In this document: positions 2,761 to 64,000 of the stretch, in pieces
Layout: every line of letters begins with the position of its first letter
Position numbering within the stretch: position 1 is the first letter of the stretch
From: an uncultured Verrucomicrobiota bacterium
GTDB taxonomy: Bacteria; Verrucomicrobiota; Verrucomicrobiia; Limisphaerales; JAYPEY01
Direction: 5' to 3'
Assembly (NCBI GenBank): GCA_964519245.1
Contig: CAZFLK010000004.1
Coordinates: forward strand, 12,111 to 76,110
DNA length: 64,000 nucleotides
Notes under the pieces: model-generated
What the model was told of the DNA's origin: nothing
What the model saw: the letters and a program-made list of their open reading frames with translations, nothing else
Databases searched by the model: none
Made by a program: the position numbers and the translations under genes

Positions 2761-3032
2761 TGGAGATCGTTCTGCTTCAGGGGGCGCAGGCGGACTTGCT
2801 GGAAGCCTATTCCCGATGGGGCGACCGATTCTACGAAGCCGCCGACGGAGCCTTGGAGCAAATCCGTCTTTTTCCGGAGTCCGCGCCGGTTTTTCATGGC
2901 AGGTATCGACGAAAGCTTATCCTTCGATATCCGTTTGGCATCTTCTACGATGTCGGCGATTCCCGTCTGTTTGTGAAAGCGGTGTTGGATCTTCGTCAGG
3001 ATCCCGAAACAATCCTCAAACGATTGGGGTAA
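2760..3032 (+). CDS. RelE/ParE-family type II toxin (90 aa)
   Basis: Start taken at the internal ATG 2760 (MEIVLLQGAQADLLEAY...), which overlaps the antitoxin stop. C-terminal 'RRKLILRYPFGIFYDVGDSRLFVKAVLDLRQDP' is ParE/RelE-like. Confidence 0.75.
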   Translation: MEIVLLQGAQADLLEAYSRWGDRFYEAADGALEQIRLFPESAPVFHGRYRRKLILRYPFGIFYDVGDSRLFVKAVLDLRQDPETILKRLG

Positions 3033-3071
3033 TCCGCTGCATGCCAGCCGAAACCTGCCCCATTCTATGGC

Positions 3072-25981: not shown

Positions 25982-25990
25982 GTCAGCTCA

Positions 25991-33510: not shown

Positions 33511-33646
33511 TTCAAACGCGACCTAAAGGGAGATTTTCTGAGGGCACACCGGTACTGTTGCCATCCGAGAGGGTTGGAATCCGACGGTTTGCGACGACCC
33601 CCTCGCGGGGTTCCGCATCGACCTGGCCAAGCAATATTTTTGGCCC

Positions 33647-33679
33647 AAAAGGAGGGGAGAGGCTTTCGCCTCCCCCCTC
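33647..33679 (-). terminator. strong stem-loop (terminator/attenuator candidate) between locus genes 2 and 3
   Basis: On the minus strand: GAGGGGGGAGGC-GAAA-GCCTCTCCCCTC, a 12-bp stem including one G.U pair with a GNRA tetraloop, followed by CUUUUGGG. It starts 16 nt after the stop of the 912-aa gene. Confidence 0.55.
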
Positions 33680-33695
33680 GCGGGGCCGCATGGGC

Positions 33696-41075: not shown

Positions 41076-43028
41076 CTAGAACGTCAGGTAGGTGTAATCC
41101 TCCAACCCACGCTCATACTCCTTCAACATCCGCATGCCGACCGAGGCTTTGAGCCGGTCGCCCTTGATCGCTAAGTCGACCTGTGTCTTCATCCGCCGCT
41201 TCAACTCCCGTTCATCGTACTGCACGGAGTCCAGCGACCGGGCGATGGTGCTGCCTTCGATCACTTCCTCCACATAGTAGCCGTCGGGCTCATCCGGATC
41301 GAGGAAGATGTGGGCCTCGCTCACCGAGCCAAAGAGATTGTGCAGGTCGCCCATGATGTCCTGGTAGGCGCCCATGAGAAAGAACCCAAGATAGTAGGGT
41401 TCTGTCGCAGAATCCGCCGGCGGCAACGGATGCAGGGCCAGTGATTTCCGACTCTCCTGCAGCCCTATAAAATCATCGATCTGCCCGTCCGAGTCACAGG
41501 TGATATCCACCAGCGTCGCGGAGATCTCGGGCTGCTCAAGGTGGCGGGAAAGCGGCACGATCGGAAAAAGCTGATCCAACGCCCAATTGTCCAACAACGA
41601 CTGGAACACCGAAAAATTGCAGATATACTGATCTCCCAAGCTGTCACGGAGTTGAACCACCTCTTCCGGCGCATGCTCCTCCTTTTCGAACCGAAGGACC
41701 ACCGCCCGGGCAATCTCTCGATAAAGCCGTTCGATCTTCGCCTTGTCCGGCAGATCCAGATGCCCCAGCGTGAACAGGGTCTGGGCATCGTCCCGAAATT
41801 TTTCCGCGTCGTGCAGGGCCTCCAATGGATTCTGACTCTCCAGTTGATCGCGCATGTCCAGCATCTCACACACAAACTTGTGGTCGCTGTCATCCCGTAC
41901 CACCGGCTCGGCCGAGCCGCCCCCATGCACGGATCCCAACGCCTGGACCACCAGGACGCTGTGATGCGCCACAATGGCGCGCCCACTCTCGCTGACAATC
42001 GTCGGATGAGGAACATTCTCCTCATCGCAGACCGAGCCGATGGCGTAGACGACGTCATTGGCATACTCCTGCAGGGAGTAGTTGGCCGAACTGTCGCTGG
42101 TCGATCGGCTGCCGTCATAATCGACCGCCAACCCGCCGCCCACGTCCAGATACTCCAGCCGAAACCCCTGCTTGTAGACCTTCGCGTAGAAACGCGCGGC
42201 TTCCTGAACGGCATTCTTGACGATCTGGATGTCCGGCACCTGCGAACCGATGTGAAAATGGAGCAGCTTGAACGACTTGTTGAGTCCGCGGTCTTTCAGG
42301 AAGCCCATCGCCTCGATCAACTCCGCGGTGCTGAGCCCGAACTTGGCGTGCTCCCCCCCGCTCTCAGCCCACAATCCACGGCTCTTGCTTTGCAACCGAA
42401 CCCGAATTCCCAACAACGGCTTCAATTTCAATTCCTGGGCGATGGCGACCACCTGCTTCAACTCTTCCAGCTTCTCCACCACGATCAGGACCTTCTTGCC
42501 CAACTGCAGGCCCATCAACGCCATCCGAATGAATTTCCTGTCCTTGTAGCCGTTGCAAATAATGAGGTCGCCCGGTTGATCCTGTAAAGCAAGGACGGCC
42601 ATGAGCTCCGGCTTGCTGCCAACCTCCAATCCATGCCCAAATTGCTCCCCAGCGTCGATGATCTCTTCCACTACCTCCCGGAGATGATTCACCTTGATCG
42701 GAAAAACAGCCTGATATCGCCCCTCGTATTCGATCTCGGATATGGCCCTGCCGAAAGCCCGGTTGATGGACTCGACCCGATCCCGGAGAATGTCCTGAAA
42801 GCGGATCAACAAGGGAGCGTGCAATCCCCGGGAACGCAGTTCCTCGATCACATCTCCGATAGCCACCTCGCCGCCCGCATCGCGCCGCGGACGGGCGACC
42901 ACCTTACCCTGGTCGTTGATGTCGAAGTATCCCTCACCCCAACGCTGGATGTGGTAAAGTTCACGCGCGGAATCGAGATTCCACGCGTCGTCGGCGATAG
43001 TCGGTTCGCTCATGTCGTCCGCAATCAA
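41076..43028 (-). CDS. speA: biosynthetic arginine decarboxylase
   Basis: 650 aa. N-terminal 'YHIQRWGEGYFDINDQGKVVARP' and the PLP-fold region 'FPIKVN...' are typical of SpeA. Confidence 0.9.
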   Translation of the reverse strand: MIADDMSEPTIADDAWNLDSARELYHIQRWGEGYFDINDQGKVVARPRRDAGGEVAIGDVIEELRSRGLHAPLLIRFQDILRDRVESINRAFGRAISEIEYEGRYQAVFPIKVNHLREVVEEIIDAGEQFGHGLEVGSKPELMAVLALQDQPGDLIICNGYKDRKFIRMALMGLQLGKKVLIVVEKLEELKQVVAIAQELKLKPLLGIRVRLQSKSRGLWAESGGEHAKFGLSTAELIEAMGFLKDRGLNKSFKLLHFHIGSQVPDIQIVKNAVQEAARFYAKVYKQGFRLEYLDVGGGLAVDYDGSRSTSDSSANYSLQEYANDVVYAIGSVCDEENVPHPTIVSESGRAIVAHHSVLVVQALGSVHGGGSAEPVVRDDSDHKFVCEMLDMRDQLESQNPLEALHDAEKFRDDAQTLFTLGHLDLPDKAKIERLYREIARAVVLRFEKEEHAPEEVVQLRDSLGDQYICNFSVFQSLLDNWALDQLFPIVPLSRHLEQPEISATLVDITCDSDGQIDDFIGLQESRKSLALHPLPPADSATEPYYLGFFLMGAYQDIMGDLHNLFGSVSEAHIFLDPDEPDGYYVEEVIEGSTIARSLDSVQYDERELKRRMKTQVDLAIKGDRLKASVGMRMLKEYERGLEDYTYLTF

Positions 43029-43122
43029 TCAAGGCCGCCCCGGCTCCGGTCGGAGCGTGGGGCTTGGTCGGTAGGAATCGCGCTAGCCCCCGCAGGCGCA
43101 ACAATACCTGGGTCGATGGCGC

Positions 43123-44823
43123 CTAGTTGGCGGGGCCGGCGATGCCCGCCGCCTGAAGCTCCCGTGACATCCAGGCCTGAAAGGCGGCGCTCTGCCGGCG
43201 CTGCCGCACCATGGCGACATAGTCTTCCAACTCTTCCTTCAGCTTGCTTTCATCCGCATCCAGCCGCTCCTTAACATGCAGGATGTAACCGGCATCGCCC
43301 ACCGTTTGCGGATAACAGATGTCGCCCACGTCCGTGCGAAACGCCGTGCCGCGATACATCGAGAAACTGACTGCGTTCTGGGCGACCGTCACGCTGGTCT
43401 GCTCGGATTCGGCAAAGGGCGGCACGTCAACCACCTTGAGTTTCAACTCCTCCGCCGCCGTCTTGAAACCCTTGTCCCCGGCAACGCTGTTGGTCAACTT
43501 CTTGTATATCTCGGCCGTATGCGTCCGAAGGAACTTCAGGGCCTCCTGCTGCTGATAGGCTTCGGTCACTTCCTTCTCAACTTCCTCGAACGTCTTCGCC
43601 TGGCTGCTGATTCTTCGGTTCAAAGCCATGAGATAGACGCCGGAGTCGCCGACCACCGGGTTGATCGTCACCTGGTTCGTCCCGCTCAGTTGAAACGCGG
43701 TCGAACTGAACTGAAACGGAAGCCCCAGGTCGCTCACCCCTTCCAACCTCGAGAACGGCGGAGTCGTCGTCGCCTTCAACCCCGCAGCCTGCGCCGTCGA
43801 AACAAAATTCGTTTCCAAGAGAAAGCTTCCCGGCTTCTCCGCCGAGAGTTTCTGCGCCACCGAGTAGAGGTCATTGGCAAAATCGGAGGCCGCCTTTCTG
43901 GCTTCGCGCAGCGCAAGCGGCTTCAAAAACTCCTCCTCGCGAATCTGCGCCTTCGCCTTCTCAGCGGACAGGGTCTTGCCCTCGTCATCCGTGAACGCCT
44001 CGGCGCCGCGATTCTCATACTCCTTGTCGATCTCAGCGGTGAGATTCGTCACGGCCTCCGCCAATCGCTCCTCAGCCTCGCCGAAATAATTGGTGGCGTC
44101 GAATCGCACGTAGGTTACCTGCACCTTCGCCTCGGTGCGATAACTGGCCGCGCGATTGGTGAAATAGGTCCGGATGGCATTGGTGTCCATCTTCACTTGG
44201 GCCAGGAAATTGGAGGCGTGAAAGAAGACGGCTTCCGTTGCTAGACGTTGATTCTCCCGACGAAAGGCCGCCTCCGCAGCGGCCTCGGTCACCAGATTGC
44301 CCCTGACCGCGACGGTGTCCCGCAACTGTTCCATCGCAGCTTCGCGACGAACAAAGCGGTAGAGGTCTTCCCGCCCCATTCCGACGCGTTCCAAACCGTT
44401 GGTCACAAAACCATTGTAGATGGCCGGATCATAGGCCCCATCGCTGTTCCGCATCATCAGCTTCAATCTCGCCACCACGGCCTCGTCCCCAACTTCGATC
44501 CCCAATTCAGACAGCTTGTTGTTCGCCGCCACGCGCTCGATTACGCTGCGATTGAAATTGGTGCGAATGAACTCGGGAGCCCGACCGCCGCTCTGCGAGG
44601 GCCATTCCCCCCAATTGAGAAAGTAACGGATCGCCTCCTCGTCCCGCGCCTCGAAGAACTCACTCCGGGAAACCGGCCGGCCGTTGACCGTGCCAAAGTC
44701 GGCAGGTCCGCCGCCCGATCCCGAGCCCACATCCGGGCTGAAGAAGACGACAAAACTGATGATGACCACCCCGCAGATCAGGATGAACAACCACTGCTGG
44801 TGTTTTCGAATCGTAGCAAACAT
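43123..44823 (-). CDS. PpiD/SurA-N-like periplasmic chaperone, membrane anchored
   Basis: Start moved to ATG 44823 (MFATIRKHQQWLFILICGVVIISFVVFF...). The N-terminal anchor plus SurA_N-like region resembles PpiD. I did not recognise a clear parvulin motif. Confidence 0.6.
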   Translation of the reverse strand: MFATIRKHQQWLFILICGVVIISFVVFFSPDVGSGSGGGPADFGTVNGRPVSRSEFFEARDEEAIRYFLNWGEWPSQSGGRAPEFIRTNFNRSVIERVAANNKLSELGIEVGDEAVVARLKLMMRNSDGAYDPAIYNGFVTNGLERVGMGREDLYRFVRREAAMEQLRDTVAVRGNLVTEAAAEAAFRRENQRLATEAVFFHASNFLAQVKMDTNAIRTYFTNRAASYRTEAKVQVTYVRFDATNYFGEAEERLAEAVTNLTAEIDKEYENRGAEAFTDDEGKTLSAEKAKAQIREEEFLKPLALREARKAASDFANDLYSVAQKLSAEKPGSFLLETNFVSTAQAAGLKATTTPPFSRLEGVSDLGLPFQFSSTAFQLSGTNQVTINPVVGDSGVYLMALNRRISSQAKTFEEVEKEVTEAYQQQEALKFLRTHTAEIYKKLTNSVAGDKGFKTAAEELKLKVVDVPPFAESEQTSVTVAQNAVSFSMYRGTAFRTDVGDICYPQTVGDAGYILHVKERLDADESKLKEELEDYVAMVRQRRQSAAFQAWMSRELQAAGIAGPAN

Positions 44824-45003
44824 GACGGTAAACTCTGATGGATTGTCAGCGCGCGTTCCGAGGTGTTCCGGAACTGGCGAAAGGGCGACAAAGTAAACGC
44901 GCCGCATAAAGCGGGTCAAACGGAAAAAGCTCTTATCGGGCCTCGCTTCGATTGCCATTCCCGCTTTACAACCGTCTGAATACCGTGGCACGCTTCGCCG
45001 GAT

Positions 45004-45734: not shown

Positions 45735-48700
45735 TCAGCGGCGAACGACGCGATAAAAGCGTTGCCAAGCCTGGCCCGCCCGATCGTCGTTGAAACTGAG
45801 TTCACCATTCACCGCCTGAACCGAACCGACCGGAGACCAATGAATCAAATCACTCGATGCCTCAATGAGGTAGACCCCGTCATCCGGCGTCTGCATGACA
45901 ATCTGAAAACCGTCACTCGGATTGGAATCAACCGCTTTTGTCACCGCTGTGCGCCGCGCCACAATGACCGCGGAGATCGTGTTGTCCGCCGGGTTCAGAT
46001 CCAACTCGTCCGCGCTGACGCTGAACGTGTTGGTCAAGGCTCCGATCGAGTTGACCTGAACGCGAACAGTCACCTCCGCGCTGCCCCCGCTGACCAGACT
46101 CCCCAATGAGACACTGAATGGATCGCCCGCCGAGTTGATGGCGGGTTGATGCATCACTGAGGGGATGAAGGTGACGTCCGTTGTCATGACCGGAGTCAGC
46201 TCAACCCCGGTCGCAATATCGCCGGTCAGGGTGACATTGCTGGCCGTCGAGGGGCCGTCATTGCGCACGGTGACCGTGTAGCTCTGCAGATTTCCGAGAA
46301 CCAACGCGCTCTCTGCCGGAGTCACGGAAACGGAAAGCCCTGCGCTGGACCCAACCGGACTGACGGTATCAATCGAAAGACTCCAACCACCGGTAATGGC
46401 TCCGGAATCACTGGTGGCGTCATCAACGACATGTAGACGCCAAAACCCGTTCGGGTTTGCTCCCTTGAAAGCGGAAAGCGCGGTGGCATACGGGCCGGCT
46501 GGCGCCCCCGGATAGGTGTCCGTCTCACTCTCAACGTGATCCGTCGGCTGATACGCACCCGAGGCGATGCCTTCCAACCGGGGCAATCCTTCAGCCGCCT
46601 GATCGGAAAAGGTGAGATCCACATCCACCAGATCGATGCCGCGCCCCGCATCGGACATCAGCACAACCCCGGTTCCATTGGGCCCGACCAAAAGGATATC
46701 CAGATCGGCGGGAAAGGTGTGGTTCACGTCATTCAACGTCACCTGGATCCGATTCACGACCAGATCCGTCAGTCCGGTGATCTCGACTTCCGAGACGCTT
46801 GCCGCGCCGGAATCGGGGATGACAACCGCCGCGCCGACCACGGGCGTCTGCGCCGCAGGCAGGGCGAAAGTTCCGGTTGCCATGCCAAGATCATGCGTGA
46901 CGGCTCCGGCATCATCGGCCAGCGAGACATTGATCTGCACCATGCCGGTCGCGGCGGCATCGACGGTGAACGTGAAGTCACGCGCCGCCTTGGCCCCGTC
47001 CGCCAGGGCTCCGTATGACTGGCTCTGGGCGCCGCCCGCCGGAAGCACGTCGCTGGAAGCAACCAAGGTCGCCACAATGTTGGTCCCTCGGACGGTGCCG
47101 GTGTTCTGAAGTTCCAGGGACAACGTGACGGTCTCTCCAGGATCCAGCGACCCGTTGGCCGGAGCGAAACTTTCCGAAACGAGTTGGAAGGAGTACTTGG
47201 CATTGTCAACCACAACCATCGGCTCATCGACCGTCGTGTTCACCATGGCGGTGTCATTGGCGACGTCGGACTCCGGCTGATCCGAGGAAACCATCACCGT
47301 GAAATCAACGGCATCCAACGTGGTGGGTCGAACCACAATCTGAAGGTCGCTGTTTTCGGCGCTGGCTGCGACATCGCCCATCTGAAAGGTCAACATGCCG
47401 GCCATGTCGTCGGACGCAACCGGAACGGTCGCCGAGACAAATTCGACCGTCGGAGCCAATTGCGTAGCCACAATCACATTCTCCGCGCCAAACATGGCCC
47501 CATGGTTCGTCACCGCGATGGAATAGGTCAGTTCATGTAATTGAAACGCGGGTTCCTTGTCGGCGACGACCTCGACCCCAAGATCCACCAGGGTGTCGTC
47601 ATCCGCGATGGTGACCAGGCCCCGGGAATCGGACATGGTCGCGTTAACCGGGCTGGCGAGGACAATCTCAAACGTTTCATCGCTCTCGGCGTCGCTGTCG
47701 CCGTTGACCTGAAAGGAGATTATCTTGCTGGTTTCGCCCGGATTGAAAACCAAGGTCGCCGGGCCAACCAGCGCCACGTAATCAGTGGGCGCCGTCGCTG
47801 AACCATCAGCCGTCGCGAAGTTCACCGAAACCTGACTCATGCCCGCTTCACTCAGATTCACAGTCACCTGCCCCATGACGCTGCCGGTGTTGCCTTCAGT
47901 CACGGTCGCATCGGTGATTGAGATGATCGGGCCGTCGTCGTTGACAATCGTCACATCCGCCGTCATGTCTCCCGCCACCGCAAACGTGGGATTGGAAAGG
48001 GTCACCGTGAAGACTTCATCCGCTTCGGGATCGGCGTCGCCATTGATGGGAATGGCAATGACCGCGCTCTGTGCGCCAGCCGGAATGGTCACGGTGGCGG
48101 GCACGGTCTCGTAGTCGCCGTCCGCAGTGGTTGCCGTTCCATCCGCAGCCGCGACGTCGGCGGAGATGGCGAGGCCGCTCACCTGGCTCAGGTTGACAGT
48201 CACCATGGCCGTGGCCTGCCCCGAATCGCCCTCGGTGACCTGCGCATCCGCGATGGATATCGTGGGAGCGCTGTCGTTATCCGTGATCGTCCCGACGCCG
48301 ACGCCTTGCAGAATGGTGGCCCCGATTTCATTGCGCAGCCGGAACTCAAAGGTTTCGTCCTGCTCGTGAGTCGTGTCGCCGATAACATCGATATTCACGG
48401 TCCGCATTGTGTCGCCGGCTTGAAAGATCAAGGTGCCTGAGTTGGCGCGGTAGTCGCGCCCCACGCTGGCGGTCGCAACGCCGGTAAGATAGTTGACCAC
48501 CACCGGCAGACCGCTGGGCGTATTCAGTTGGACCGTCATGGGCAACTGAGTTGTTCCCGTGTCCCCTTCGGTGACCCCGCCGCTGACAACGCTCAACTGG
48601 GGCTTGGGATCGTCGCCGACCGTGTTGCGGATGGTCACGGTGGTCAGGTCGGTCAGGATGATCGCGTTGGTGGCGTTGAACAGGCGAATGCCGAAGGTCT

Positions 48701-51653
48701 CGTCGTTCTCGTAGAGGGTGTCCCCATTGATCTGCAGGGTGATGATCTGGTTCGTCACTCCCGGCCGGAAGGTCAGCGTTCCGGATTTGGCGACATAATC
48801 GCCCGTTAGCCCGTCCGCTTTGGCCGTCAAATTCGTGGTCGCATACTCAACCGTAATGTCGCTCGCGCCGGCCTTGGTGAGTTTTACATCGACGACCACA
48901 TCCCGCAGCCCGGAGTTTCCTTCGAGCAACTGCAACGGTTCGATGGCGAGGCGTGGTTCATCGTCCAAAATCGTGCCGACACCATGACCATCCAACACCG
49001 AGCTGAATACGGCGTTGGTGAGGAAAAGGGCGAAGGTTTCGTCCGCCTCCAGCAAATTGTCTCCCAGGATGTCCACCTGAACGGTCAAGTTCGTCTGTCC
49101 CGGATTCAAGGTGGCAACGCCATTGGTCGGAAGATAGTCCAGCCCCGCGAGGGCGGTCTCGTCCGAAGTATAGAAGAAGACGGAAACCGTGTTGGTGCTG
49201 ACTTCAGAGATGGAAAGATCGAACACGACGCTGTTGGTCCCGCCCGCGTCGGCTTCCGTGACGCTGACGTCCGTTACGCTCCAGACCGGCCCGTCGTCGT
49301 TCAGAATCTCACCCACGCCCGTGTCATCGATGATCTGGGCGTCCGTGGCGTTGAAGATGCTCACCAAAAAGGTTTCATTCTGCTCTTCAAGCTCGTCGCC
49401 GTTTACCGGGACGAGGATGGACTTGCTGGTTTCACCCGGCACAAAAACCAGGGTTCCGGCCGCCGGACGGTAGTCCACCACGGGATTGGCGTTGCCGCCC
49501 GCAGTGGAATAACTGACGCTGATGAACTGGCTCACCGGCTGGGACAACGTCACCGTGAAAACGGCGTTGGTCGTTCCGCTGTCACCTTCCTGGACCGCTG
49601 CATCCGTAATCGCGATGTCGGGCACCACGTTGGTCGAGGTGCCCCACACATCCAATTTGGCGTAATCCAAGGTTCCCACTCCGCCGAAACCGCGGTCGGC
49701 AACCCGAAGCGACCACGTTCCAGCCGCCAATTCGCCCCAGTTCCGGACGGTCATGAGCTTCCAGCCGTTGTAATCGAAGAATGGCGTAAAGTCGGTCTCT
49801 GCCAGCCGGCTGACCATGCCGCTGGGAGAGATCAAGTCAATCTCCAGATCGCCGGCTGACGAGTGGGTGGTGTCGATCGTGAGCGTCACATGCTCAACTC
49901 GAAAGTCCTGAGCCTGGACGTCGAAATTGACCGAAACGCCCGTTGCCGCCAGATCGGGGATGGCGAGGTTGAGATTCGTCTGCACCGCGGAAACCACCAG
50001 ATGCTCGGGGAGGTTCGTCCAGGTTTGAGCCATCGCGACAGCCGCTCCCGCGTCGACCATGCCGGCGCCGTAGCTGTCGTGGAAATGGAATCCGGCGGCG
50101 TTGTTGGTCCAACCGCGGTCAAATCGGTCGTTCTGCGCCGCAGTGCTCATCAGGATCTCCTGAACATCGCGCCAACCGAGGTTCGGGTTGGCTTCAAGCA
50201 TCAACGCGACCACCCCGGAAACGACAGGAGCCGCCGAGGAAGTCCCATTGAAACCCTCCGTGTAATCAGCATCAAGAAGGTCGCCCCCGGCTCCGTCGTT
50301 GAAACCAGCGGTTCCGACCGTATCCGTGGTCGTCGTCGCATGGGTCAATCCACTCAGGGAGATCTCGCCGCCGGAAGGCGCGGAAACCACCAAGGCCGCT
50401 CCCCGGTTGCTGTAGTCAGCCTTGCCGCCGCGGTTGTCCAACGCCCCGACCGCGACCGTATAGATCGAATTGGCGTAACCGTTGTAATTGACGTTCTCCA
50501 TGTCGAGGTCGCCGTTCCCTGCCGCAAAGACGAAGATATTGCCCAATCCGTTGCGCCCATTGGTGACGCCTTCCAACAAGGCGGCATCGGTAAGCGGACC
50601 GGTCGTTCCGAGGAAAATGCCGAAAGAAACCGGTCCCCAACTATTGTTGCTGACTTCAACCACCTGATTGCTGTGCAGCAGGACCGACGCGGTCGTGCTG
50701 TCCGAGGTGAACCCGGAAAGAAACCGCAACCCGACCATCTCGGAATTGAAGGCGACACCCGTGATGCCGATTCCATTGTTGCCGACACCGGAGGCCACAC
50801 CCGCAACGGCAGTGCCGTGAGCGTCCGTCACCCCGTTGCCCGGCGAGGGATCGGAATCGAAGAAGTTGTAGTCGAAATCAATGATCGTGTTGGCGTTCAC
50901 CAAAAGGTCCGGATGCGCGGTTTGCACCCCGGTATCCACCACCGAGATGGTGACGCCCTGCCCGGTGTAGCTGTCCCACAAATCCGTCACATTGATGTCC
51001 ACGCCGAATGCGGCGTTGCTCTGCCCCGTGTTCAGGAGATGCCATTGATTGGTGAACAACGGATCGTTGGGAATCAACAAAGGTTGTTTCCAGGTCGCCA
51101 ACAGGGGCTCAACGGCCAATACGCCGGGTTGTGATGCGAGGGCGTCGGAGAGCTCAAGCGCGGCGCCAACCTGTGCGCCGGTGAACAAATGGAACCCCGG
51201 GGCATAGGCGACCGACTCCGTCGAACTGGCTCCAATCCGGGTCGCGACGGCGGCCGGATCTGTTCCCGGAGTCAAACGGGCCAACGCTGTCCGGGTGACA
51301 ACGTGGCGCGAGAACTGGGTCCTCGGCGCCCCCTCAGGATAGATGACCAGATCCGCCCGCCCACCCGTCAGCGCCGCGATCCGATCAGCCTCTGCGCGCA
51401 CCGCCTCGGCGTCCGCTTGGAGCGCGATGGTCCGCGAAGCGCCGACGCGGCGTTGATCGACCAGGTGAATTTCGTCCTTCGCGAGGCTGAAACGGACGGT
51501 TTGACCGGACCGGCGCAGGCTGAAGTTATCCTGCAGCGCGGCCCCGTGCGCCTCACCATGTATGCCCGCGACCAAGGTCGCGGCGCTCACACAGAGCATG
51601 CGAACGACGCGCCTCGCGAATCGGTTTTGAAAGAGGTTGCTCATCAATGCCAC
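45735..51653 (-). CDS. 1,972-aa secreted kexin/furin-like S8 serine protease with P-domain, Calx-beta array, DUF11 domains, a second (orphan) P-domain and a conserved C-terminal domain
   Basis: Catalytic triad motifs 'VVDTGV' (Asp), 'HGTAVAGV' (His) and 'GTSSAAPVVSG' (Ser), with 'NNSWGP' for the oxyanion Asn. P-domain 'HSSAGDLEIDLISPSG...GTWSLRVAD'. At least 8 Calx-beta-like repeats ('...EGDSG...DY....GTL.F.PGET.K...V.I.GD...E.DETF'). Second P-domain 'HTFPADLDILLVGPNG...GFWRLHVVDD...GGWSLSI'. Confidence 0.9.
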   Translation of the reverse strand: MALMSNLFQNRFARRVVRMLCVSAATLVAGIHGEAHGAALQDNFSLRRSGQTVRFSLAKDEIHLVDQRRVGASRTIALQADAEAVRAEADRIAALTGGRADLVIYPEGAPRTQFSRHVVTRTALARLTPGTDPAAVATRIGASSTESVAYAPGFHLFTGAQVGAALELSDALASQPGVLAVEPLLATWKQPLLIPNDPLFTNQWHLLNTGQSNAAFGVDINVTDLWDSYTGQGVTISVVDTGVQTAHPDLLVNANTIIDFDYNFFDSDPSPGNGVTDAHGTAVAGVASGVGNNGIGITGVAFNSEMVGLRFLSGFTSDSTTASVLLHSNQVVEVSNNSWGPVSFGIFLGTTGPLTDAALLEGVTNGRNGLGNIFVFAAGNGDLDMENVNYNGYANSIYTVAVGALDNRGGKADYSNRGAALVVSAPSGGEISLSGLTHATTTTDTVGTAGFNDGAGGDLLDADYTEGFNGTSSAAPVVSGVVALMLEANPNLGWRDVQEILMSTAAQNDRFDRGWTNNAAGFHFHDSYGAGMVDAGAAVAMAQTWTNLPEHLVVSAVQTNLNLAIPDLAATGVSVNFDVQAQDFRVEHVTLTIDTTHSSAGDLEIDLISPSGMVSRLAETDFTPFFDYNGWKLMTVRNWGELAAGTWSLRVADRGFGGVGTLDYAKLDVWGTSTNVVPDIAITDAAVQEGDSGTTNAVFTVTLSQPVSQFISVSYSTAGGNANPVVDYRPAAGTLVFVPGETSKSILVPVNGDELEEQNETFLVSIFNATDAQIIDDTGVGEILNDDGPVWSVTDVSVTEADAGGTNSVVFDLSISEVSTNTVSVFFYTSDETALAGLDYLPTNGVATLNPGQTNLTVQVDILGDNLLEADETFALFLTNAVFSSVLDGHGVGTILDDEPRLAIEPLQLLEGNSGLRDVVVDVKLTKAGASDITVEYATTNLTAKADGLTGDYVAKSGTLTFRPGVTNQIITLQINGDTLYENDETFGIRLFNATNAIILTDLTTVTIRNTVGDDPKPQLSVVSGGVTEGDTGTTQLPMTVQLNTPSGLPVVVNYLTGVATASVGRDYRANSGTLIFQAGDTMRTVNIDVIGDTTHEQDETFEFRLRNEIGATILQGVGVGTITDNDSAPTISIADAQVTEGDSGQATAMVTVNLSQVSGLAISADVAAADGTATTADGDYETVPATVTIPAGAQSAVIAIPINGDADPEADEVFTVTLSNPTFAVAGDMTADVTIVNDDGPIISITDATVTEGNTGSVMGQVTVNLSEAGMSQVSVNFATADGSATAPTDYVALVGPATLVFNPGETSKIISFQVNGDSDAESDETFEIVLASPVNATMSDSRGLVTIADDDTLVDLGVEVVADKEPAFQLHELTYSIAVTNHGAMFGAENVIVATQLAPTVEFVSATVPVASDDMAGMLTFQMGDVAASAENSDLQIVVRPTTLDAVDFTVMVSSDQPESDVANDTAMVNTTVDEPMVVVDNAKYSFQLVSESFAPANGSLDPGETVTLSLELQNTGTVRGTNIVATLVASSDVLPAGGAQSQSYGALADGAKAARDFTFTVDAAATGMVQINVSLADDAGAVTHDLGMATGTFALPAAQTPVVGAAVVIPDSGAASVSEVEITGLTDLVVNRIQVTLNDVNHTFPADLDILLVGPNGTGVVLMSDAGRGIDLVDVDLTFSDQAAEGLPRLEGIASGAYQPTDHVESETDTYPGAPAGPYATALSAFKGANPNGFWRLHVVDDATSDSGAITGGWSLSIDTVSPVGSSAGLSVSVTPAESALVLGNLQSYTVTVRNDGPSTASNVTLTGDIATGVELTPVMTTDVTFIPSVMHQPAINSAGDPFSVSLGSLVSGGSAEVTVRVQVNSIGALTNTFSVSADELDLNPADNTISAVIVARRTAVTKAVDSNPSDGFQIVMQTPDDGVYLIEASSDLIHWSPVGSVQAVNGELSFNDDRAGQAWQRFYRVVRR

Positions 51654-51700
51654 AATATCGTTGAACGTGTCGCGCTGCGCGCGGCGTTCGTGGGGTTACA

Positions 51701-54700
51701 TCATTTCTCGCTGGTGCGGTAGAAGCGTTTGTCCTGGCCGGCCGCCTGCGTATCCTGGAAGGTGACAACGCCGTTCATCGTCTTGTTGGTCGCGACCGGC
51801 GTCCATGACTGGAGATCGGCTGACGCTTCCAGCACGTAGGTCACGCCCACCCGGCCGGCAACGCTGATCTGAAGCGGTTGACCAGGATCGGCCATGTCCA
51901 TGGCCCCGGGCAGACTCAAGGTGACCTGGTTGTTGATGCCCACCAGCGTCGTCAGGTTCAGACTCCATCCGCCGGAGATGGCGCCGTGGTCGTGTCCCTG
52001 GTCGTCGTAAATATACAACTTCCACGTTCCGGCGGGATCCGTGCCCGTGAAAACGCCCAATGTCGTCCCATAGGGGCCGGCCGGCGCGTCGGCCGGGAAG
52101 ACATCAATGCCCGAAGCTTCGGTGCTGTCGGTGACATTGGTCGGCTTGTAGGCTCCCGTGCTGATGCTCGGGGAATGGCTGTCCGGCAAGGAAGCGGTGG
52201 CCTGATCATCAAAGGTCAGCGTCACGCCAGTCAAACCGACGCCGCCGCCCACATCCGACATCAACATGACATTGGCTCCGGTCGGCCCCACGAGGAGCAT
52301 GTTGATGTCATCGGGGAACGAGTGGCTGAGATCGCTGACGGTGACCGTCGCCTTGACTATCTCACCCGCCAACATGCCCATCGGCACCACGATCTCGGAC
52401 GGATACGGCCCGGCGGGACCAAAGTTGCCGGCAATCGACTGATCGCCCGGGATATTGATTTCCATGGCGGATGCAAACACCGAATCCTCGTTCAAGCGGA
52501 AGCGAACGACAATCACGCCCAACTCGACCACTCCATCCCGCAACTCAAAGGTGGCGGCAATGGTCTCCCCGCGCTCGCCGTCAGCCAAAAACTCGAAGTT
52601 CTTTGTCTTGGCTCCATCGCTCTTGTTCAGGACGCCATAACTGGCGGTCGCACCGGTTCCCGACGGATTGTAAGGAGAGGCGTCGTCGACCGCCACGGGA
52701 TTGGCAATGCCGCCGGAGGCCTGAAGCGTCACATTCAGGTCGGCGATCGGCGTGTTCAAAAGGTTGTCCAAGGCAATGCCGACGACCACGGTTTCCTGCG
52801 GGTCCACGGCATTGTTGGCCGGAACATTGCTCTCCGAAAGCAGGCTGACGTTGACGCCCACATTATTGGAACGCTCAAGAACGGCCGTGGTGACCATGGC
52901 GGCGTTGTTGGATGCGTCCGTGTCATTGGTGGTCGTTGCAACGGTGACCACGTTGTCGATGTCCGGCTGCGCCCCTGGCACGGGCGGGATATCAAGCGCA
53001 ATGGTCACGACTACGTTGGTTCCTACCGGAAGCGCTCCGAGCGAACAGGTGACGACACCGCCGGCGAAGACGCATTCCGGGGACGAATCGGCTGCGACAA
53101 ACGTCCCCGCTTCGAGGACGTCGGTAAGTATCACATTTGCGGCCGTGGAAGGGCCGTTGTTGGTGACGCCGATCGTGTAGACAAGCCGCTCGCCCTCGAT
53201 CACGCGAGAGGGCGTATTTGTGAGCGTCACCGCCACATCAGCCGCCTCGCTGACGGTGGTTGTCGCGGCGACCGCGGTATTGTTCGCGGCGTCGGGATCC
53301 ATCAGCCCAGAGGTCACACTGCCCTGCGCGGCAAAGACGCCGGTGGCGGAGGCGCGCGCGGTTATGGTAATCGTGGCCGTCCCGCCACTGGCCAGCGTGC
53401 CGAGCGTCGCCGTCACCCTGCCGGAGTTCACCACGGTGGCAAGCCCCCGAGACGATTGTGCGGCAACGCTGCTCAAACCGGCCGGGAGGCTGCCATCGAA
53501 GAGAACCGAGGGCGCCGCCAGCGGGCCGTTGTTGGTCACGGTGAAAACAAACCTCAGATCGGAATCCAGCGTGACAATGTTGCCGACGCCGGTGAGAGCC
53601 AGATCAGCCGCGCCGTTGACGGTGACGGTCGTGACGACAGAATTGTTCCGCGGGGCCGGGTCCGGCTGGTCCGCTGAAACTGTCGCGCCGTTGGTCAACG
53701 TGCCCGAGGCATTCGGCCGGATGGTGAGCGTGACGGACGCGGTCGCATCGCGAGCGATATCTCCCAGCGCCCATGTGACCTTGCCGCCGGCTGCGACCCC
53801 GCCGCCGGATGCGGAGACAAAGGTTGTGTTGGCCGGCAACGTGTCTTCCAGAATGACGTTGGTCGCGGTCTCCGGTCCCAGGTTGACGACGTCGAGCGTG
53901 TAAGTCAGATCCGCCCCCACTGTGACGGCGTTGGTGGACGGAACGACGCTCAGGCCAAGGTTGGCCGGGGGATCAACGGCGAACACCGTGCTGATATCGA
54001 GGCTCCAACCGCCAGCGATACTGCCGGTGTCGAGGCGGGAGTCATCCACCACAAACAGGGACCACGTGCCATTCGGATCACTGCCGTTGAAATCACTCAG
54101 CCGGTCGCCAAAAGTCCCGCTCGGGGCCGGGCTGGGGAACTCGTCCGGAGCCTCGTCCCGCGTCGTGTAGTTGGCGGGGCGATACGTTCCGGCCGTCAGC
54201 GGCCCGCCATCCGGCAGCGCCAGGGCGGCCTGATCGTCGATCGTGAGAGTCAGGTTGAGGATGTCGTCGCCGCCGCCCACATCCGACATGACGATAACGC
54301 CTTGTCCGGTGGGCCCGACCAGCAGGATATCCACATCATCCGGGAAACTGTGGGTGAAGTTGCTCAACGTCAGGGCGACGTTGTTCACGTAACCGACCGC
54401 GCCGCTGATGTCCACAGACGCGGGATAAGGCAACGCCTCCCCTTTCTCGATGATTGCGATCGTCGCGCTGTTGGTTCCCGCCGCGGCGCTGCCGAGCACG
54501 AACGGGAAGACCACGGTGTTGTCTGTCCGCACATTGCCGCCCTCGGAGATCTGCAGCATGACATTGATCACCTCGCCGGCCGCGCCATTGGCCGTGAACT
54601 GGAAATCGCGTCCCACCGGCGCATTGCCAACAGCCATGGCTCCGTAGTTCTGAGTTGTCGTGCCGCTCGGGGTGATGTTGGCGTTGGGCACCAAGGTCGC

Positions 54701-57700
54701 CTCAATGTCGCCGGCGGTGGGAAGGTTGCCGGCGTTTCGCAGATTCAAGGTCAGGCTGACCAACTCGCCCGGGTCAATGGCTCCATTGGCCGGAGCCTTG
54801 CTTTCCGAAACGATTTGGGCGCCGGCAGGCGCCATGAAGGATTGATCGTCGCGAATCGTGGTAACCAAGGTGACCGCATTGTTGGAGAGATCCGGATCGG
54901 TGGCTCCGCTGCCGTTTTGGAATTCCAATGCCGAGACGCCTGCGGTGTTGGCCACGGTTCCCGCCGCGTTCGGCGCGGTGACATCGAAACTCACGGTCTG
55001 GCTGCCGCCGTTGGTGATCTGACCCAGGTCGAAGCTGACAAAACCGGCGACATTCAGATCGCCGGGAATCGAAAGACTGCCCGGATCAAGCGTGACTTCG
55101 GCCGGCAATTGATCCACCAGCGAGACGCCGTTCAATGTGGCGGGACCCGCATTGGTGACAATGATGGTGTAAGTGTATTTCTGCCCCTTGTAGATGGGAT
55201 CCGCGGTCGCCATCTTCAACACGGCGAGGTCGGCGCTGGTGTCATCGTCAGCGATGATGACCGGGATGGCCGTGTTGCCAACGAAGGTGGTTGAAGCGTC
55301 CGGACTTTCCACAATCAGCGACAACTCCTCGTCGCCTTCGATCAGCGTGTCGGGCAGGATATCGAGGACGACCGTCTTGTTGGTCTCCCCGGGGTTGAAG
55401 GTCAGGACGGCGCTGAGCTCCGTGTAGTCAAATCCGGCGGCAGCGGCGGTGGCAGGCGTTGTTCCGTCCTGCGTCCGCACCAGCGCGCTGACGGTCTCGT
55501 TCGTTCTGGTCAGGCGGCCTATATTCAGAGTGATGTTGGTCGCGCTCTCGCTGACCGTGTAGGTCGGGGCTCCAAAGCCGAGTTCGATGTCGTTGTCGAC
55601 AATGGTGAGACTGGACATGGCGAGCCCCAAGGCCAAGCCCGGCTGGAGCCGCGCCAGGTTTAGAATGGTTTGTCCGCTGAACATGGTAAAATTGCCACCG
55701 ACGATTAACTGTTCGTCCACTTGGAGGGTGAAATCAAATACAGGCCCGTCAAATCCCCAGCACGGCTCGAAATTGGTGTCGCGCGCGCCGTCAAAATTCA
55801 GTCGCTCGATCCGGTTGCGGTTGACGCCATTGAAGCTTCTGAAGTTGCCGCCAACAAGAATCTTTTGGTCGAGAACATTCGTGGCGGGCGTAATCGCCAA
55901 GGCAAGAACGGAGGTCTGGAATCCGTTCAATGTGTCGGCGCCGGAGCCAATGTTGAAGGTATTGTCCAAGGCCCCGTTGGGCAGGAGTCGGGCAACGCCA
56001 TTGTAAGCGGCATTGGCAATATTGTTGAAGCTGCCGCCCAGAACGATGCGCCCGTCCAGCATGTCATCCAGCGCGAACGCGGAACCGCCCCGGATTCCCT
56101 GGAACGGACCGCCTATGACGCCCCCTGACTGGAAGTTGGTGTCCAAATTCCCGTTCTGAAGCAGGCGAGCATAGCCCACCACATTGTTGGTGCCGCCATA
56201 GGAGGTAAATCCGCCGGCGATCACGGCTCCGAAGTCCAAGGCGCCACTGTTCTCCAACACTCGCGTGTGGGGGAGCACGGCAAAGACCGGGCCATTCGCC
56301 CCGGTCTGCGTGTTCAGACCGCCATTCAGGGTGCCGTTCGCATTCAAGAGCGCCACGCGTTGAGCATCGGTCCCGTCAAATTGCGTGAAATCACCGCCGA
56401 TGAGGAGACGCCCGTCCACGGTGCGATGCTCAATACTGCGGATCGTGCCATTGGCGCCGGTTCCCGCCATGTAGTTCGTGTCAATCGTGCCGCTGGGCAA
56501 CAAACGGACTATGCGATTATGGGTGTTGGTGTTGAAGCTGGTGAAGGAACCGGCCAGCACGATGTTCTGATCGGGCTGCACATAAATATCGAGAATTTGT
56601 CCGTTGGCCCCGAATCCCGGATTGAAGGTCAAATCCAATTCCCCGTTGGCAAGCACACGGACAATTCCACGCACCGGAGTTGAACCGTTGCTGTCAACCC
56701 AGGTATTGAACGCGCCCGCGACCAGAATTCGACCATCCTGCTGAACTTCGGATGCAAGCACCGGTCCATTGGGCCCGCGGAACCCGCCGCCCAAGGGATC
56801 GAAGCCGACGTTGAAATTGGTGTTCAGTTCACCAAACGGAGCAAATCCGGAAAGCAAGGCTCCTTGCGCGCCCAACAGGGTCAGATTCACCGTTTCGTCG
56901 CCCTCCACCAAGGCCGGAACTTCATCGACGATGGGCACATTGACGAACTGTTCCGTTTCGCCGTCCGCAAAGGTAACCGGCTGTTCCACATGTGTGAAGT
57001 CGAGGCCGGCTGTCGCCGTGCCGTTCGTGGTCGCAAAGTTGGCGCTGGCAACGCCGTTGGCGCCATGCACACGCTCGATCCGGATCCTGGCCTCCCCCGC
57101 GTTCTCGTTGGTGGCATACGAAACACTGTCGAACCGGATGAAGCCCGGGCTGAACTCGTTGTCCACAATCCGCAATTCCGCATTGCGCTGACTCAGGATG
57201 GCGTTCCCGACCAGGTTGGAGAGCGTCAGATTGACGGTCTCAGTCCGTTCGATTTTTGTGTCGTCGAACAAACCAACCTGGAAGGTTGCCGTCCGCTGAC
57301 CGTTCGAGAAGCTGAGCGTCCCATTGGTCGCGATGTAGTCGACAATCACATTCGCGGTTCCGTCGCTGACCGCGAAGTCAACAGTCAACGGCTCAATGGC
57401 GCCGCCGGCACGCACCACCGAGATCGTCGCGTTGGTCTCATTTTCAGTCACCGCGAAGAAGGCGGACTCAAATCCGACCACGCCATCGTTGTCGAGAATC
57501 GTAAGAACCGAGGCGCTTGGTTCAATCAGGAGGTTCGGATCCGCGGCAAAAACGCCCATGCCGTTCTCTTGCTGGGAATTGGATAGCGAGAGGTTGACCG
57601 TCTTGTCGCCAAACGGGTTGCTGTTGTCGATCACCGGAATGACAATGTTCTTGAGGGTCTCGCCCTCTTCGAACACCAGTGTTCCCGAGACACCGGTATA

Positions 57701-60700
57701 ATTCACCGACTCCAGGGCGGAGCCGTTCGAGGTGGCATAGTCCACGGAAATTCTGCCCGTCAGGCCCCGGGTCCGAATGATGGCGACTTCCGCGAAAACG
57801 GCGTTCTCAGCGACGGTATAGGCGGCCGACGCAAAATTGAGATTGCCCGGGCCGATGTTCTCCCCCCCGTGCAGTCTCGCGATCCGATTGTGAGCAATGC
57901 CATCCACGGTTGAAAAGCCACCGCCAATGACCACCGTGCCGTCGCCCTGAATCAGCGATGTGGTGACAATGCCGTCGACTCCGCGGCCGATGTTGAAGGT
58001 CGAGTCCAGGGAGCCATCCTGATTCAACCGGACAATCCGATTCAAGTTGGTGACCGAACCAACGGAATTGAATCCGCCGCCGATGAAGATGCGTTCCGTG
58101 TCGTCGCGGGAGGCGTCGACGGCAACCGTATGAACCAGACCATTGGGTCCACCGGCGGTGTCAAAGTTTGCCGCGAGGGAACCGTCCGAGTTCAGGAGCG
58201 CCACGCCGGCCATCCGGGTTTCCCCGTTGACTGCAGTGAATTCACCGCCCAGCACGACCGAGCCGTCGTCGCCGAGAAAGTCGATCGAGTAAACAGAGCC
58301 GTTCGCGCCGGTTCCGGGATTGAAGGTCTTGTCGACCGAGCCGTCGGTCCGCAAACGGACAATTGAACCCGCCGCCACCCCATCAAACTCCGTGAAATCG
58401 CCGCCCACCACGACAAAGCCGGCGGCATCCACCGCCAAGGTCCGGACGATGTTGTTGGCTCCATAGCCCGGGTTGAAGGAGAGATCCAACGAACCGTCAT
58501 CATTCAGGCGGGCAATGTGATTCCGCTCCACCCCGTCGACCAGGGTGAAATCGCCGCCGATCACGATTCGACCGTCATTCTGCGCCAGCACGGCGTGCAC
58601 AAAACCGTTGGGTCCGGTTCCGGTGTCAAAGGTGGGGTCGATGGATCCGTTCTCATTCAGTCGCGCGATGTTGAAACGGTTGGTTCCGCCAATCTGGTCG
58701 AATCGACCGCCGATGATCACCTTGCCGATATGCACGCCGTTCGTGACCAAACTGACAGAACGGACAGTGGCGTTCGTGCCGTCATAGGTGATGCCGCCCG
58801 CGTCGAAGAGCGTGTCCAAAGTCCCGTCCATGTTCAATCGCGCAACATTGGCGCGACTGATTCCGTTGAAGGACTGGAAGTCGCCGCCGATCGTCAGTTT
58901 GCCCGTCGGGGCAAACTCGGCGACAGAGTAGACGGTCGCATCCGCGCCGATGGTCTGAGCGAAGGAATCGTCTTGAGACCCAGCGGCGGCCTCATTGTCG
59001 ATCAGGACCAGCGTCGCCGATGTCTGCCCGATCGCAGCGCCGCCAGTGGCGGCCGACAGGGCAAGGTTGACGGTGAAGAATCCTTCGCGGGCCGGGTTGT
59101 GGGAGATCGGCACATCGAAGGTGAGTTCGTCTTGTTGATCGGCGAAGTTCAAGGTTCCCGAGACATCCGTGTAATCCTCACCCGGTGTCGCAGTGCCGGC
59201 CGAAGTGGCGAAATCGACGCTGACCGCACCAAACACGCCGTTGGTTCGCACGACGGTGATGGTGGCGACACCCGCGGTCTCGTTGACGTTGAAGCGCGCC
59301 TCGGAGAAGGCGAACACACCGTTCAGGTCGTCGTCATTCTCGGTGATGTTCACCTGCATGGTCGGATTGGCCCCCAACGAAGATCCGCGTGTCGGGTTCG
59401 ACAAGGTGAGAAACAGGGTTTCGTCGCCTTCAAACAGGCGAGGATTCTCATCGAAAATGGTCAGGGGGTGTTCCATCTGCGTCTCGCCCTCGAGGAACTC
59501 AAAGGTGATGGGAGCGAAGTCCTGGTAATCCAAGCCGGGCGTCGCCGTTCCCGGAACGATCGCAAGATCCACTTTCACGTCACGGGTTGTCCCACCGGTG
59601 CGGTTGATTTTCACCATGTGTGTCCCAACGCCCTCATCCAGGTCAAGTGCAACAAACTCGAAGGAGAAGGCTCCGTGGAGGAAACCGTCGTTGTTCAGGA
59701 TCTCAAGGTTCGCGGTGTTGCGACCGCCGAGAACAGCCCCGCCCCGCGGATTCGAAAGCAGCAGCACCACGTTCTCCGTTTTCTCTTCCGCTTCCATCTC
59801 GTTCCCATTGACCTCCACCACGAACGTCCGATTCGTGACGCCATCGGCAAAGGTGAGAACTCCGGAAGTGGCGGTATAATCCTTGTCCGGACCTGCGATC
59901 GCCAATCCATCACGGGTGGCGTAATCGACCGAAATCGTGCCTGTGACGCCATTGGTGCGCAGCACGGTGATCTCGATGCTCCCGCCATTCTCATCGATGG
60001 TGTACTTCGACGCGGAGAAATTGAGTTCTCCAGTCCTGAGATCATCATCGACAATGACCAGCGGGACGGACGCGCGGTCGGGATCGATGGTGGTGGCCCC
60101 CTGTTCGTTCATCAGAAGCAGGGTCAAGGCCTCTTCACCCTCGACCAACTGGTCGTCCAAGAGCGGCACGCCAAAGGATTTTCGAACCTCTCCCGCGGCA
60201 AACGAAAGCGTGTTGGTCACGGGCGTATAATCAACGCCGGAGGTCGCGGTTCCCTCCACAGTGATGAAGCCCACGCTGGCGGGGCCGGTCGCTCCCCCGA
60301 CACGTTCAACCGTGATGACCGCAACGCCTTCGCCCTCAGCCAGGCTGAACGAGTTGGCGGCAAAGCCAATCAGGCTGTCGTCTTCGGAAATCGTCACCGT
60401 CGCGGTCGCATCCGGACCGAGCAAGGCCGGATCAGGAGCCATCACACCCTGTCTGGGATCGGTCAGGCGCAGGAGAATCGTCTTGTCGAACGGATCTCCA
60501 ATCGTGTCGTCAATCAACGGGATAGAAAGCGTTTGCAGCGACTCACCATGGGGAAAGGTGATGGTCGTGGTGCCGAGCGCCGTAAAATCGGTTCCGTTGA
60601 CCGCGGTCCCTCCGTCGATGGTGACGCCCACATTGAGCTCGCCTTCAAGTCCGCGGGAACGAATCACAGTGATTTCCACGGAGGCCGCGTTCTCAGTCAC

Positions 60701-63700: not shown

Positions 63701-64000
63701 GTTGTTGGTCACACCGGCCTGCTGGTTGTAAGCCGTGTCCATGAAGCTGGTGTCCAGCGCGCCATCCTGGAAGATTCGGGCGAGGTTGGTCCTCGCGACC
63801 TGGTTGAAGCTATGGAAAATACCGCCGAGGATGAAACGCCCGTCGGGCTGCTGCTCCACGGAAAAAACCGTATCGTCAAAGCCGCGCCCCACCGAGAAGC
63901 TCTCATCGAGCGTTCCGTCCGAATTCAAGCGCGCAATGCCATTGCGGCTGCGGAAGTCGACAGTGTTGAAGGCTCCAACAATGACCGGCTTCTCAATGCC
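51701..64000 (-). CDS. giant (>4,099 aa, N-terminus outside window) surface protein: alternating delta-60-type beta-propeller blocks and Calx-beta blocks, then DUF11 domains with two orphan P-domain modules and a conserved C-terminal domain
   Basis: The frame stays open through 64000: [32 protein letters not shown] precedes the TTG the ORF track starts at. Delta-60-type repeats are numerous ('F..G.G.NG.V.A...Q.DG.I..GG.F....G..R..IARLN.DGSLD..F'), and there are at least 14 Calx-beta-like units. P-domains '[16 protein letters not shown]' and '[16 protein letters not shown]'. Confidence 0.9.

Follow-up and report, generated by a model that had tools for sequence, protein, structure and literature searches.

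Anciently duplicated Ig-like/P-domain modules in two neighbouring giant genes of an uncultured Verrucomicrobiota bacterium

Two giant genes and a two-domain module

The stretch of DNA analysed here (64,000 nucleotides (nt), referred to as the window) comes from an uncultured Verrucomicrobiota bacterium and carries, in tandem and both on the minus strand, two giant genes that we call gene A and gene B. Both encode a module of about 285 amino acids (aa), composed of an immunoglobulin (Ig)-like domain, hereafter the N-domain, and a P-domain that comes without a protease. One copy lies in gene A (A_M) and two lie in gene B (B_M1 and B_M2). A six-frame scan of the 64 kb with a hidden Markov model (HMM) of the module found exactly these three copies and no more, with envelopes at 46344-47192 (A_M), 53966-54823 (B_M1) and 51926-52852 (B_M2). 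An earlier note on this DNA had proposed three copies at these places, and its proposal is borne out: the motifs SESx[AV]PAN, HxFPxD and GGWxL each occur exactly three times, in register. The genes and the module domains are as follows.

45735-51653, minus strand: gene A, a secreted protein of 1972 aa (open reading frame (ORF) and translation, Pfam)
46344-46856, minus strand: protease-less P-domain of A_M, aa 1600-1770 (HMM envelope; PF01483, 35.9 bits)
46857-47192, minus strand: N-domain of A_M, aa 1488-1599 (HMM envelope), holding the 36-nt site 47152-47187
51701-64000, minus strand: gene B, a giant surface protein with more than 4098 aa visible, its 5' end beyond the window
51926-52483, minus strand: protease-less P-domain of B_M2, aa 3839-4024 (HMM envelope; PF01483, 27.5 bits)
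52484-52852, minus strand: N-domain of B_M2, aa 3716-3838, with a 12-aa insertion (HMM envelope, alignment)
53966-54484, minus strand: protease-less P-domain of B_M1, aa 3172-3344 (PF01483, 26.7 bits; confident AlphaFold 2 (AF2) model; Foldseek matches to furin, Kex2 and ASP)
54485-54823, minus strand: N-domain of B_M1, aa 3059-3171 (HMM envelope; beta-sandwich in the AF2 model), holding the 36-nt site 54783-54818

The three modules align end to end, with pairwise amino-acid identities of 39.5%, 34% and 39.6% and about 70 invariant columns and, judged from this alignment, they are true paralogues with shared boundaries. None is attached to a protease domain, as the earlier note had also held. 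Two of them belong to a gene that is free of proteases, and the third lies about 950 aa beyond the end of the S8 domain of gene A, with the canonical P-domain of the gene, six Calx-beta repeats and one DUF11 in between. The last of these domains now bears the name CLIPPER, and fibrillar adhesins are reported to contain it as a CnaA-like stalk domain (Costa et al. 2025, PMC12617251).

The gene A product starts with a Sec-like signal, as judged by eye, and continues with a kexin-like S8 protease, the canonical P-domain, the six Calx-beta repeats, a DUF11, the module, another DUF11 and a C-terminal domain of about 70 aa. A database protein (P0239), which starts at M19, differs from it by one residue, and a nearly identical public metagenome contig of 22.3 kb (L004; ENA ERZ27313062, contig k141_820264) encodes a gene A product that is 1 aa different. 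The reading frame of gene B, with its stop at 51701, is open up to the window end at 64000, and its product aligns with 58.6% identity to residues 658-4754 of a 4754-aa database protein (P0148). According to Pfam it consists of about 20 DUF5122 propeller blades, 13 Calx-beta repeats, a DUF11, module 1, three DUF11, module 2 and the C-terminal domain. Together, the two genes encode 19 Calx-beta and 7 DUF11 domains, and their heads are the S8 protease in A and the propeller repeats in B. A DUF11 precedes all three modules. That each copy is also followed by DUF11, as had been claimed, holds for A_M and B_M1 and fails for B_M2, which runs directly into the C-terminal domain. The domains that surround the modules are listed below.

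45738-45974, minus strand: C-terminal domain of gene A, about 70 aa (BLASTP of A 1910-1972 against B 4036-4098, 33% identity)
45966-46337, minus strand: DUF11/CLIPPER after A_M, aa 1773-1896 (PF01345)
47241-47585, minus strand: DUF11/CLIPPER before A_M (PF01345, 45.2 bits)
49653-49898, minus strand: canonical, protease-attached P-domain of gene A, aa 586-667 (PF01483, 66.9 bits)
50061-50963, minus strand: Peptidase_S8 catalytic domain of gene A, aa 231-531 (PF00082, E = 3.8e-43)
51704-51931, minus strand: C-terminal domain of gene B, about 70 aa, directly after B_M2 with no DUF11 between
52868-53980, minus strand: three tandem DUF11/CLIPPER between the gene B modules (PF01345; 87.2, 67.2 and 73.2 bits)
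54869-55231, minus strand: DUF11/CLIPPER before B_M1 (PF01345, 68.9 bits)

When six of the DUF11/CLIPPER copies were aligned and inspected by eye, five were without a first-strand lysine at the site of the CLIPPER isopeptide lysine, the sole copy with it being the one before B_M1. Most of the copies listed above may thus be isopeptide-free variants.

An ancient duplication larger than the module

A genome scan gave three loci in metagenome-assembled genomes of Verrucomicrobiales. Among them, L002 (71% identity) and L003 (50%) retain the B-then-A tandem and the two-plus-one distribution of modules. In a 10 x 10 matrix of module identities, orthologues share 57-85% of their residues, whereas paralogous pairs share 38-45% in the window, in L002 and in L003, and the copies have therefore not evolved in concert after the lineages diverged. 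The same picture emerges from a wider comparison, in which the window's own paralogues come only 47th to 126th in nearness when set against 131 other full modules from database proteins, and from a neighbour-joining tree, in which the modules of five B-like giants (4585-5760 aa) cluster according to their position. The duplication is thus older than the divergence of the related genomes examined.

How far did the duplicated unit extend? The strongest alignment between the two proteins joins A 1291-1903 to B 2857-3464, is collinear over 628 aa (33.6% identity, E = 6e-75) and covers the last Calx-beta repeat, a DUF11, the N-domain, the P-domain and the following DUF11; a second one (A 1357-1775 with B 3587-4029) covers DUF11, N-domain and P-domain. 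Because these alignments extend past the module, its boundaries are boundaries of domains and not of the duplication. The unit that was duplicated was DUF11-N-P(-DUF11), larger than the module, and the C-terminal domain is also common to both genes. As far as can be read from the protein alignments, the whole C-terminal tails of A and B are paralogous.

The earlier note had read the similarity at the DNA level in another way, namely as a sign that modules had been duplicated or exchanged between the neighbouring genes, and a recent duplication or gene conversion of this sort was considered as a rival explanation. Some observations do favour such an exchange. The match between 47152-47187 and 54783-54818 is indeed 30/36, and genes A and B have no second one of 30/36 or better along any diagonal. 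In addition, the best three DNA matches in a blastn self-comparison of 18 kb all lie within modules (72% over 104 nt, 70.5% over 129 nt and 73.7% over 95 nt). However, every one of these matches falls on conserved protein motifs (VSESxAPANG, HxFPxD and MSDVGGG), and over their full length the modules share 46-52% of their nucleotides. Identical codons at identical residues are no more frequent than codon usage predicts: the observed and expected numbers for the three pairs are 51 and 45.2, 36 and 38.4, and 55 and 46.4 (z = 1.15, -0.50 and 1.68). Synonymous divergence (dS, NG86 method) is 1.3-1.8, with third-position identity barely above the compositional expectation, and for silent sites a run test of the Sawyer type is not significant (p = 0.40-0.73). 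The 36-nt site itself is as similar across genomes as within the window. B_M1 matches the window's A_M at 30/36 and the A module of L002 at 29/36, and A_M matches its own orthologue at 29/36. The match comes from a conserved motif, QxVSESxAPANG, that these genes encode with the same codon preferences; it reflects conservation of the motif and not conversion. Given also the excess of orthologous over paralogous identity in all three genomes, a recent exchange is contradicted and, on the evidence of silent sites and orthologues, the exchange reading is largely refuted. Purifying selection on a few motifs, combined with a GC-rich codon bias, would account for the local DNA similarity.

One further stretch bears on this question. 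B_M1 and B_M2 share a run of 22 identical nt, ATGTCGGATGTGGGCGGCGGCG, at 54268-54289 and 52240-52261, which encodes MSDVGGG. L003 has a within-genome run of 20 nt at the same site, matching between its copies in other synonymous codons. A naive run test over all nucleotides of B_M1 and B_M2 returned p = 0.0004. We did not take this value as a sign of conversion, since the run encodes the invariant MSDVGGG and p is 0.54 when silent sites are tested. Micro-conversion and a coincidence of codon bias could both explain the run, the former without statistical support from the silent sites. More generally, short DNA matches between repeated domains of GC-rich genomes need synonymous-site and orthologue controls before gene conversion is inferred from them.

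The two domains, their pairing and their surroundings

In all three modules the P-domain scores above the PF01483 gathering cutoff of 21, and the match is split by an insertion of about 45 aa between the two halves of the Pfam model. An origin of these domains from the canonical P-domain of gene A was considered and ruled out by the scores against an HMM of the module P-domain, to which the canonical domain gives 5.4 bits and the three modules 277-288 bits; the best BLAST E-value between the canonical domain and module P-domains is 6e-4. By these scores, the module P-domains form a subfamily distinct from the canonical one.

AF2, run with a 60-sequence alignment, modelled the whole module with a predicted local distance difference test (pLDDT) of 94.3 and a predicted template modelling score (pTM) of 0.85, and the P-half alone with 96.1 and 0.91, respectively. 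In Foldseek, the top 27 matches of the P-half are all furin, Kex2 or ASP (probability 0.96-1.0, TMq, the query TM-score, 0.38-0.52, 11-16% identity). The N-half is an all-beta sandwich that matches Ig-like, MG and TRAP-beta folds. The pair of N- and P-domains was not present in any solved structure in the Foldseek and PDB searches, and a PDB sequence search with the whole module gave nothing significant. As regards the suggestion that the two domains form a fixed unit, prediction thus returned a confident two-domain model, in which the two domains appear rigid relative to each other, as read from the pTM. Across 81 diverse sequences (30-57% identity), H45, D50, D52, D68, D83/84 and D147/148, in the numbering of the P-domain, are nearly invariant, and so are N and W residues. 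The H and D residues are compatible with metal binding, and the nearly invariant set as a whole may build a structural Ca2+ site, a site for a ligand or the two together.

The N-domain had been called CARDB-like. It does carry the motif DPGE-V-x-L-x-L-x-N-x-G...A-x-N-V, and CARDB (PF07705), which is related to other Ig-like 'NxG' domains (DUF11, NPCBM_assoc), is its best Pfam match, but the score is 19.8 bits in A_M, below the gathering cutoff of 22.7, and CARDB is undetected in B_M1 and B_M2. The possibility of a divergent DUF11 was rejected, since hhalign against the DUF11 copies of the window gave 40.7% probability over 33 columns; TIGR01451 reaches E = 0.015 in one copy. The NCBIfam models NF038111 and NF038112 for M36 peptidases also cover the N-domain, and no sequence relative of it was found in a PDB sequence search. 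In effect, the N-domain is an unmodelled Ig-like family with no solved structure.

Is this pair of domains peculiar to the window? A HMMER scan of 1.84 billion representative sequences matched the module in 13,462 proteins at E <= 1e-3 and in 4,209 at E <= 1e-30. Many of these proteins have 2-10 copies, and many matches span the full profile. From 270 retrieved proteins we obtained 132 full modules in 77 proteins. They typically alternate with DUF11, as in a protein with an S8 domain, 10 DUF11 and 4 modules (P0134) or in another with 6 DUF11 (P0175). The P-domain is also found in short entries named 'subtilisin-like proprotein convertase family protein' that have no protease and combine it with TIG, Big_5, CarboxypepD_reg, HYR or Calx-beta. 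With more than 13,000 representative clusters, protease-less P-domains thus count among the very common elements from which giant bacterial surface proteins are built. The homologue search returned mainly short or fragment entries (at most 518 aa for a 296-aa query and at most 214 aa for the 113-aa N-domain), and counts of architectures drawn from it are biased.

The spacing of the two domains is conserved. In 71 measurable modules the length of the junction from N- to P-domain deviates by 0-6 aa from that in the window, and in 45 of them it does not deviate at all. A first count had the N-domain followed by the P-domain in 149 of 152 cases, which suggested that the pairing is universal. This was rejected as a sampling artefact, because the proteins had been selected by a profile dominated by the P-half. 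A sample independent of the P-domain was obtained by scanning metagenome contigs for DNA encoding PANG[AS]xDPGE and keeping the N-domains with at least 60 residues of following frame (n = 60). In this sample, the N-domain is followed by this P-domain 19 times and by something else 41 times. From the other side, 620 of 769 P-domains in the database sample have no N-domain. The pair is therefore a frequent, geometrically conserved cassette, not an obligate one.

Where the N-domain occurs without the P-domain, it is mostly followed by a MAM-like jelly roll of about 190 aa with the pattern SENFDGVT.PALPAGW...FDGGVLEISINGG.F.DI...GGSFV.GGYN...GW.VD (metagenome loci L005-L080, for instance L009:1941-4484:+, L018:2662-6891:+ and L044:3460-6078:-). 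The host proteins of this combination have sedolisin, nuclease (Exo_endo_phos) or BNR/sortilin heads, and only 5 of 20 MAM-like segments reach E <= 0.01 with InhA-like_MAM (PF20773), which makes this a second unmodelled pairing. The same N-domain stands before a MAM-like jelly roll there and before a P-domain here, so an Ig-like domain followed by a jelly roll is a recurring design.

The domain at the C-terminus of both proteins shows the pattern '...Y.lEAS.DL..W.PV.....nG...F.D......RFYR', its 33% identity between A and B extending over 63 aa. It gave no match in Pfam, NCBIfam or the PDB. An HMM built from the two copies found it in 71 of the 270 database proteins that bear modules, nearly all of which have it 0-3 aa from their C-terminus, and by this placement it behaves like a putative sorting or secretion domain. 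Both this domain and the N-domain are reasonable targets for new family models and, for the surface biology of Verrucomicrobiota, for structural and localisation studies.

Inspection of the genes next to A and B revealed no dedicated secretion system encoded beside them. Downstream of gene A, positions 41076-44991 of the window hold genes with housekeeping functions, namely those for a SurA-like chaperone and arginine decarboxylase. A second cluster of large ORFs, of 859, 494, 2012 and 912 aa, lies on the minus strand at 23402-36434, about 10 kb downstream of gene A. DUF11 is present in the 859-, 2012- and 912-aa ORFs and SdrD_B also in the 859- and 2012-aa ones, the 494-aa ORF has no Pfam match at E <= 1e-5, and none of the four carries the module. 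This cluster looks like another surface-protein locus.

Role of the cassette and comparison with known systems

What might the cassette do? In the arrangement that we propose, an Ig-like beta-sandwich is fused, without a linker, to a protease-less jelly-roll P-domain of the convertase P/galactose-binding-like kind. These cassettes sit in a DUF11(CLIPPER)/Calx-beta stalk near the C-terminus of two giant secreted proteins, a putative 'fibrillar enzyme' with a kexin-like S8 protease (gene A) and a beta-propeller/Calx-beta giant (gene B). There the cassette would be a rigid element, probably stabilised by Ca2+, with the task of binding a glycan or protein ligand or of acting as a spacer in the stalk, and would not act as a chaperone for a protease domain. 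We hold it likely that the three copies are ancient paralogues of a widespread extracellular two-domain cassette of this kind, located in the stalk and serving there for binding or as part of the stalk itself. Given the jelly-roll fold of the P-domain, a binding or lectin-like role, as raised by the earlier note, is by analogy a reasonable suggestion. Regions resembling P_proprotein are on record from proteins predicted to be fibrillar adhesins or 'fibrillar enzymes' (Monzon et al. 2022, PMC9210967). A literature search on 'P-domain-containing protein' yielded nothing relevant.

Several points weigh against this proposal. Rigidity between the domains has the pTM as its one measure, and a binding role is drawn from fold class and context only. 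The pairing of N- and P-domains is not obligate, given the 41 N-domains and 620 P-domains found without their partner. The 22-nt run in B_M1 and B_M2, with the similar run in L003, leaves room for very short conversion tracts. Finally, the cassettes lie near the C-terminus, beside a putative sorting domain, and would be cell-proximal if the C-terminus is anchored; a spacer or anchoring function would therefore be favoured over that of a distal adhesive tip.

This last consideration leads to the main rival of the reading that we favour, a pure spacer: the modules would be structural parts of the stalk that have no specific ligand and extend and stiffen the protein as DUF11 and Calx-beta do. It is a possibility to be taken seriously, although we think it rather doubtful. 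In its favour, the modules are embedded among DUF11/CLIPPER stalk domains close to the C-terminus and repeated 2-10 times in many proteins, the junction appears rigid and linker-free from the AF2 model and the junction lengths, and the boundary between stalk and adhesive domains is blurred in the literature on fibrillar adhesins (PMC9210967). Against it stand the nearly invariant polar or charged residues (H, several D and N) and W, kept in sequences as diverse as the 81 compared, from which it can be argued that the module is more than a spacer. Moreover, jelly-roll domains of the P class and MAM-like domains commonly mediate recognition.

A bolder reading than the cassette proposal is also conceivable, although we regard it as unlikely and put it forward tentatively. 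The N-domain could be an undescribed 'adaptor' platform for interchangeable jelly rolls and, together with the C-terminal domain, mark an unrecognised class of sorted surface proteins. If this were true, a rigid, linker-free N-domain would replace the subtilisin domain as the packing partner of the P-domain, the class would be present in Verrucomicrobiota and allied phyla (with the C-terminal domain in 71 of 270 related proteins), and the C-terminal domain would represent a new signal for secretion or anchoring, comparable to the C-terminal domain of the type IX secretion system (T9SS) or to PEP-CTERM.

Could the S8 protease of gene A instead be the target of the orphan P-domains, which would then give additional help with its folding or regulate it, in cis or in trans? 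The canonical P-domain supports the folding of the adjoining convertase domain and is required for it (PMC2605481), and the modules are present once in the protease gene and twice in the adjacent one. Nevertheless, gene A already has a canonical P-domain beside S8, the module P-domains belong to a different subfamily, and they occur in thousands of protease-free proteins, among them JGI and NCBI entries with TIG, Big_5, CarboxypepD_reg, HYR, Calx-beta or DUF11. For these reasons the canonical chaperone role does not fit, and we consider an action on the protease very improbable. A recent exchange of the module between the two genes is, in view of the silent sites and orthologues described above, the least credible explanation of all.

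Comparison with the P-domain of proprotein convertases (PF01483; furin 1P8J, Kex2 1OT5/2ID4 and Aeromonas sobria ASP 3HJR) helps to define the cassette that we favour. The likeness lies in the Pfam match above cutoff, in the core motifs H-x4-D-x-[DE]-x5-P-x-G and G-x-W-x-L...G-x-[IL]...W-x-L, and in the predicted jelly-roll fold, for which furin, Kex2 and ASP are the only confident PDB neighbours. Unlike the convertase domain, the P-domain of the module does not adjoin a subtilisin catalytic domain and has an Ig-like domain in front of it instead, and it carries the insertion of about 45 aa and belongs to a separate subfamily. A second point of reference is given by secreted hydrolases (InhA-like_MAM; M36 models), in which the same N-domain precedes the MAM-like jelly roll in place of the P-domain; the host proteins in the window differ from these in being stalk-rich giants.

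The closest parallel for the whole proteins is found in fibrillar adhesins and fibrillar enzymes (PMC12617251, PMC9210967). Genes A and B differ from these in having no recognised anchor or sorting domain, its place being taken by the unmodelled C-terminal domain, in that most DUF11 copies appear, by eye, to be without the first-strand isopeptide lysine, and in their host, a Verrucomicrobiales bacterium known from metagenomes alone. In common with them, the products are giant and secreted, with stalks of tandem DUF11/CLIPPER and Ig-like domains and, in A, an S8 head. Indeed, the combination by which such proteins are recognised (signal peptide, Ig-like stalk and functional head) was found here, with the signal of A judged by eye and the N-terminus of B lying outside the window. 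In this respect, the architecture in which the cassette is set is an ordinary one for giant surface proteins of Verrucomicrobiota and related phyla.

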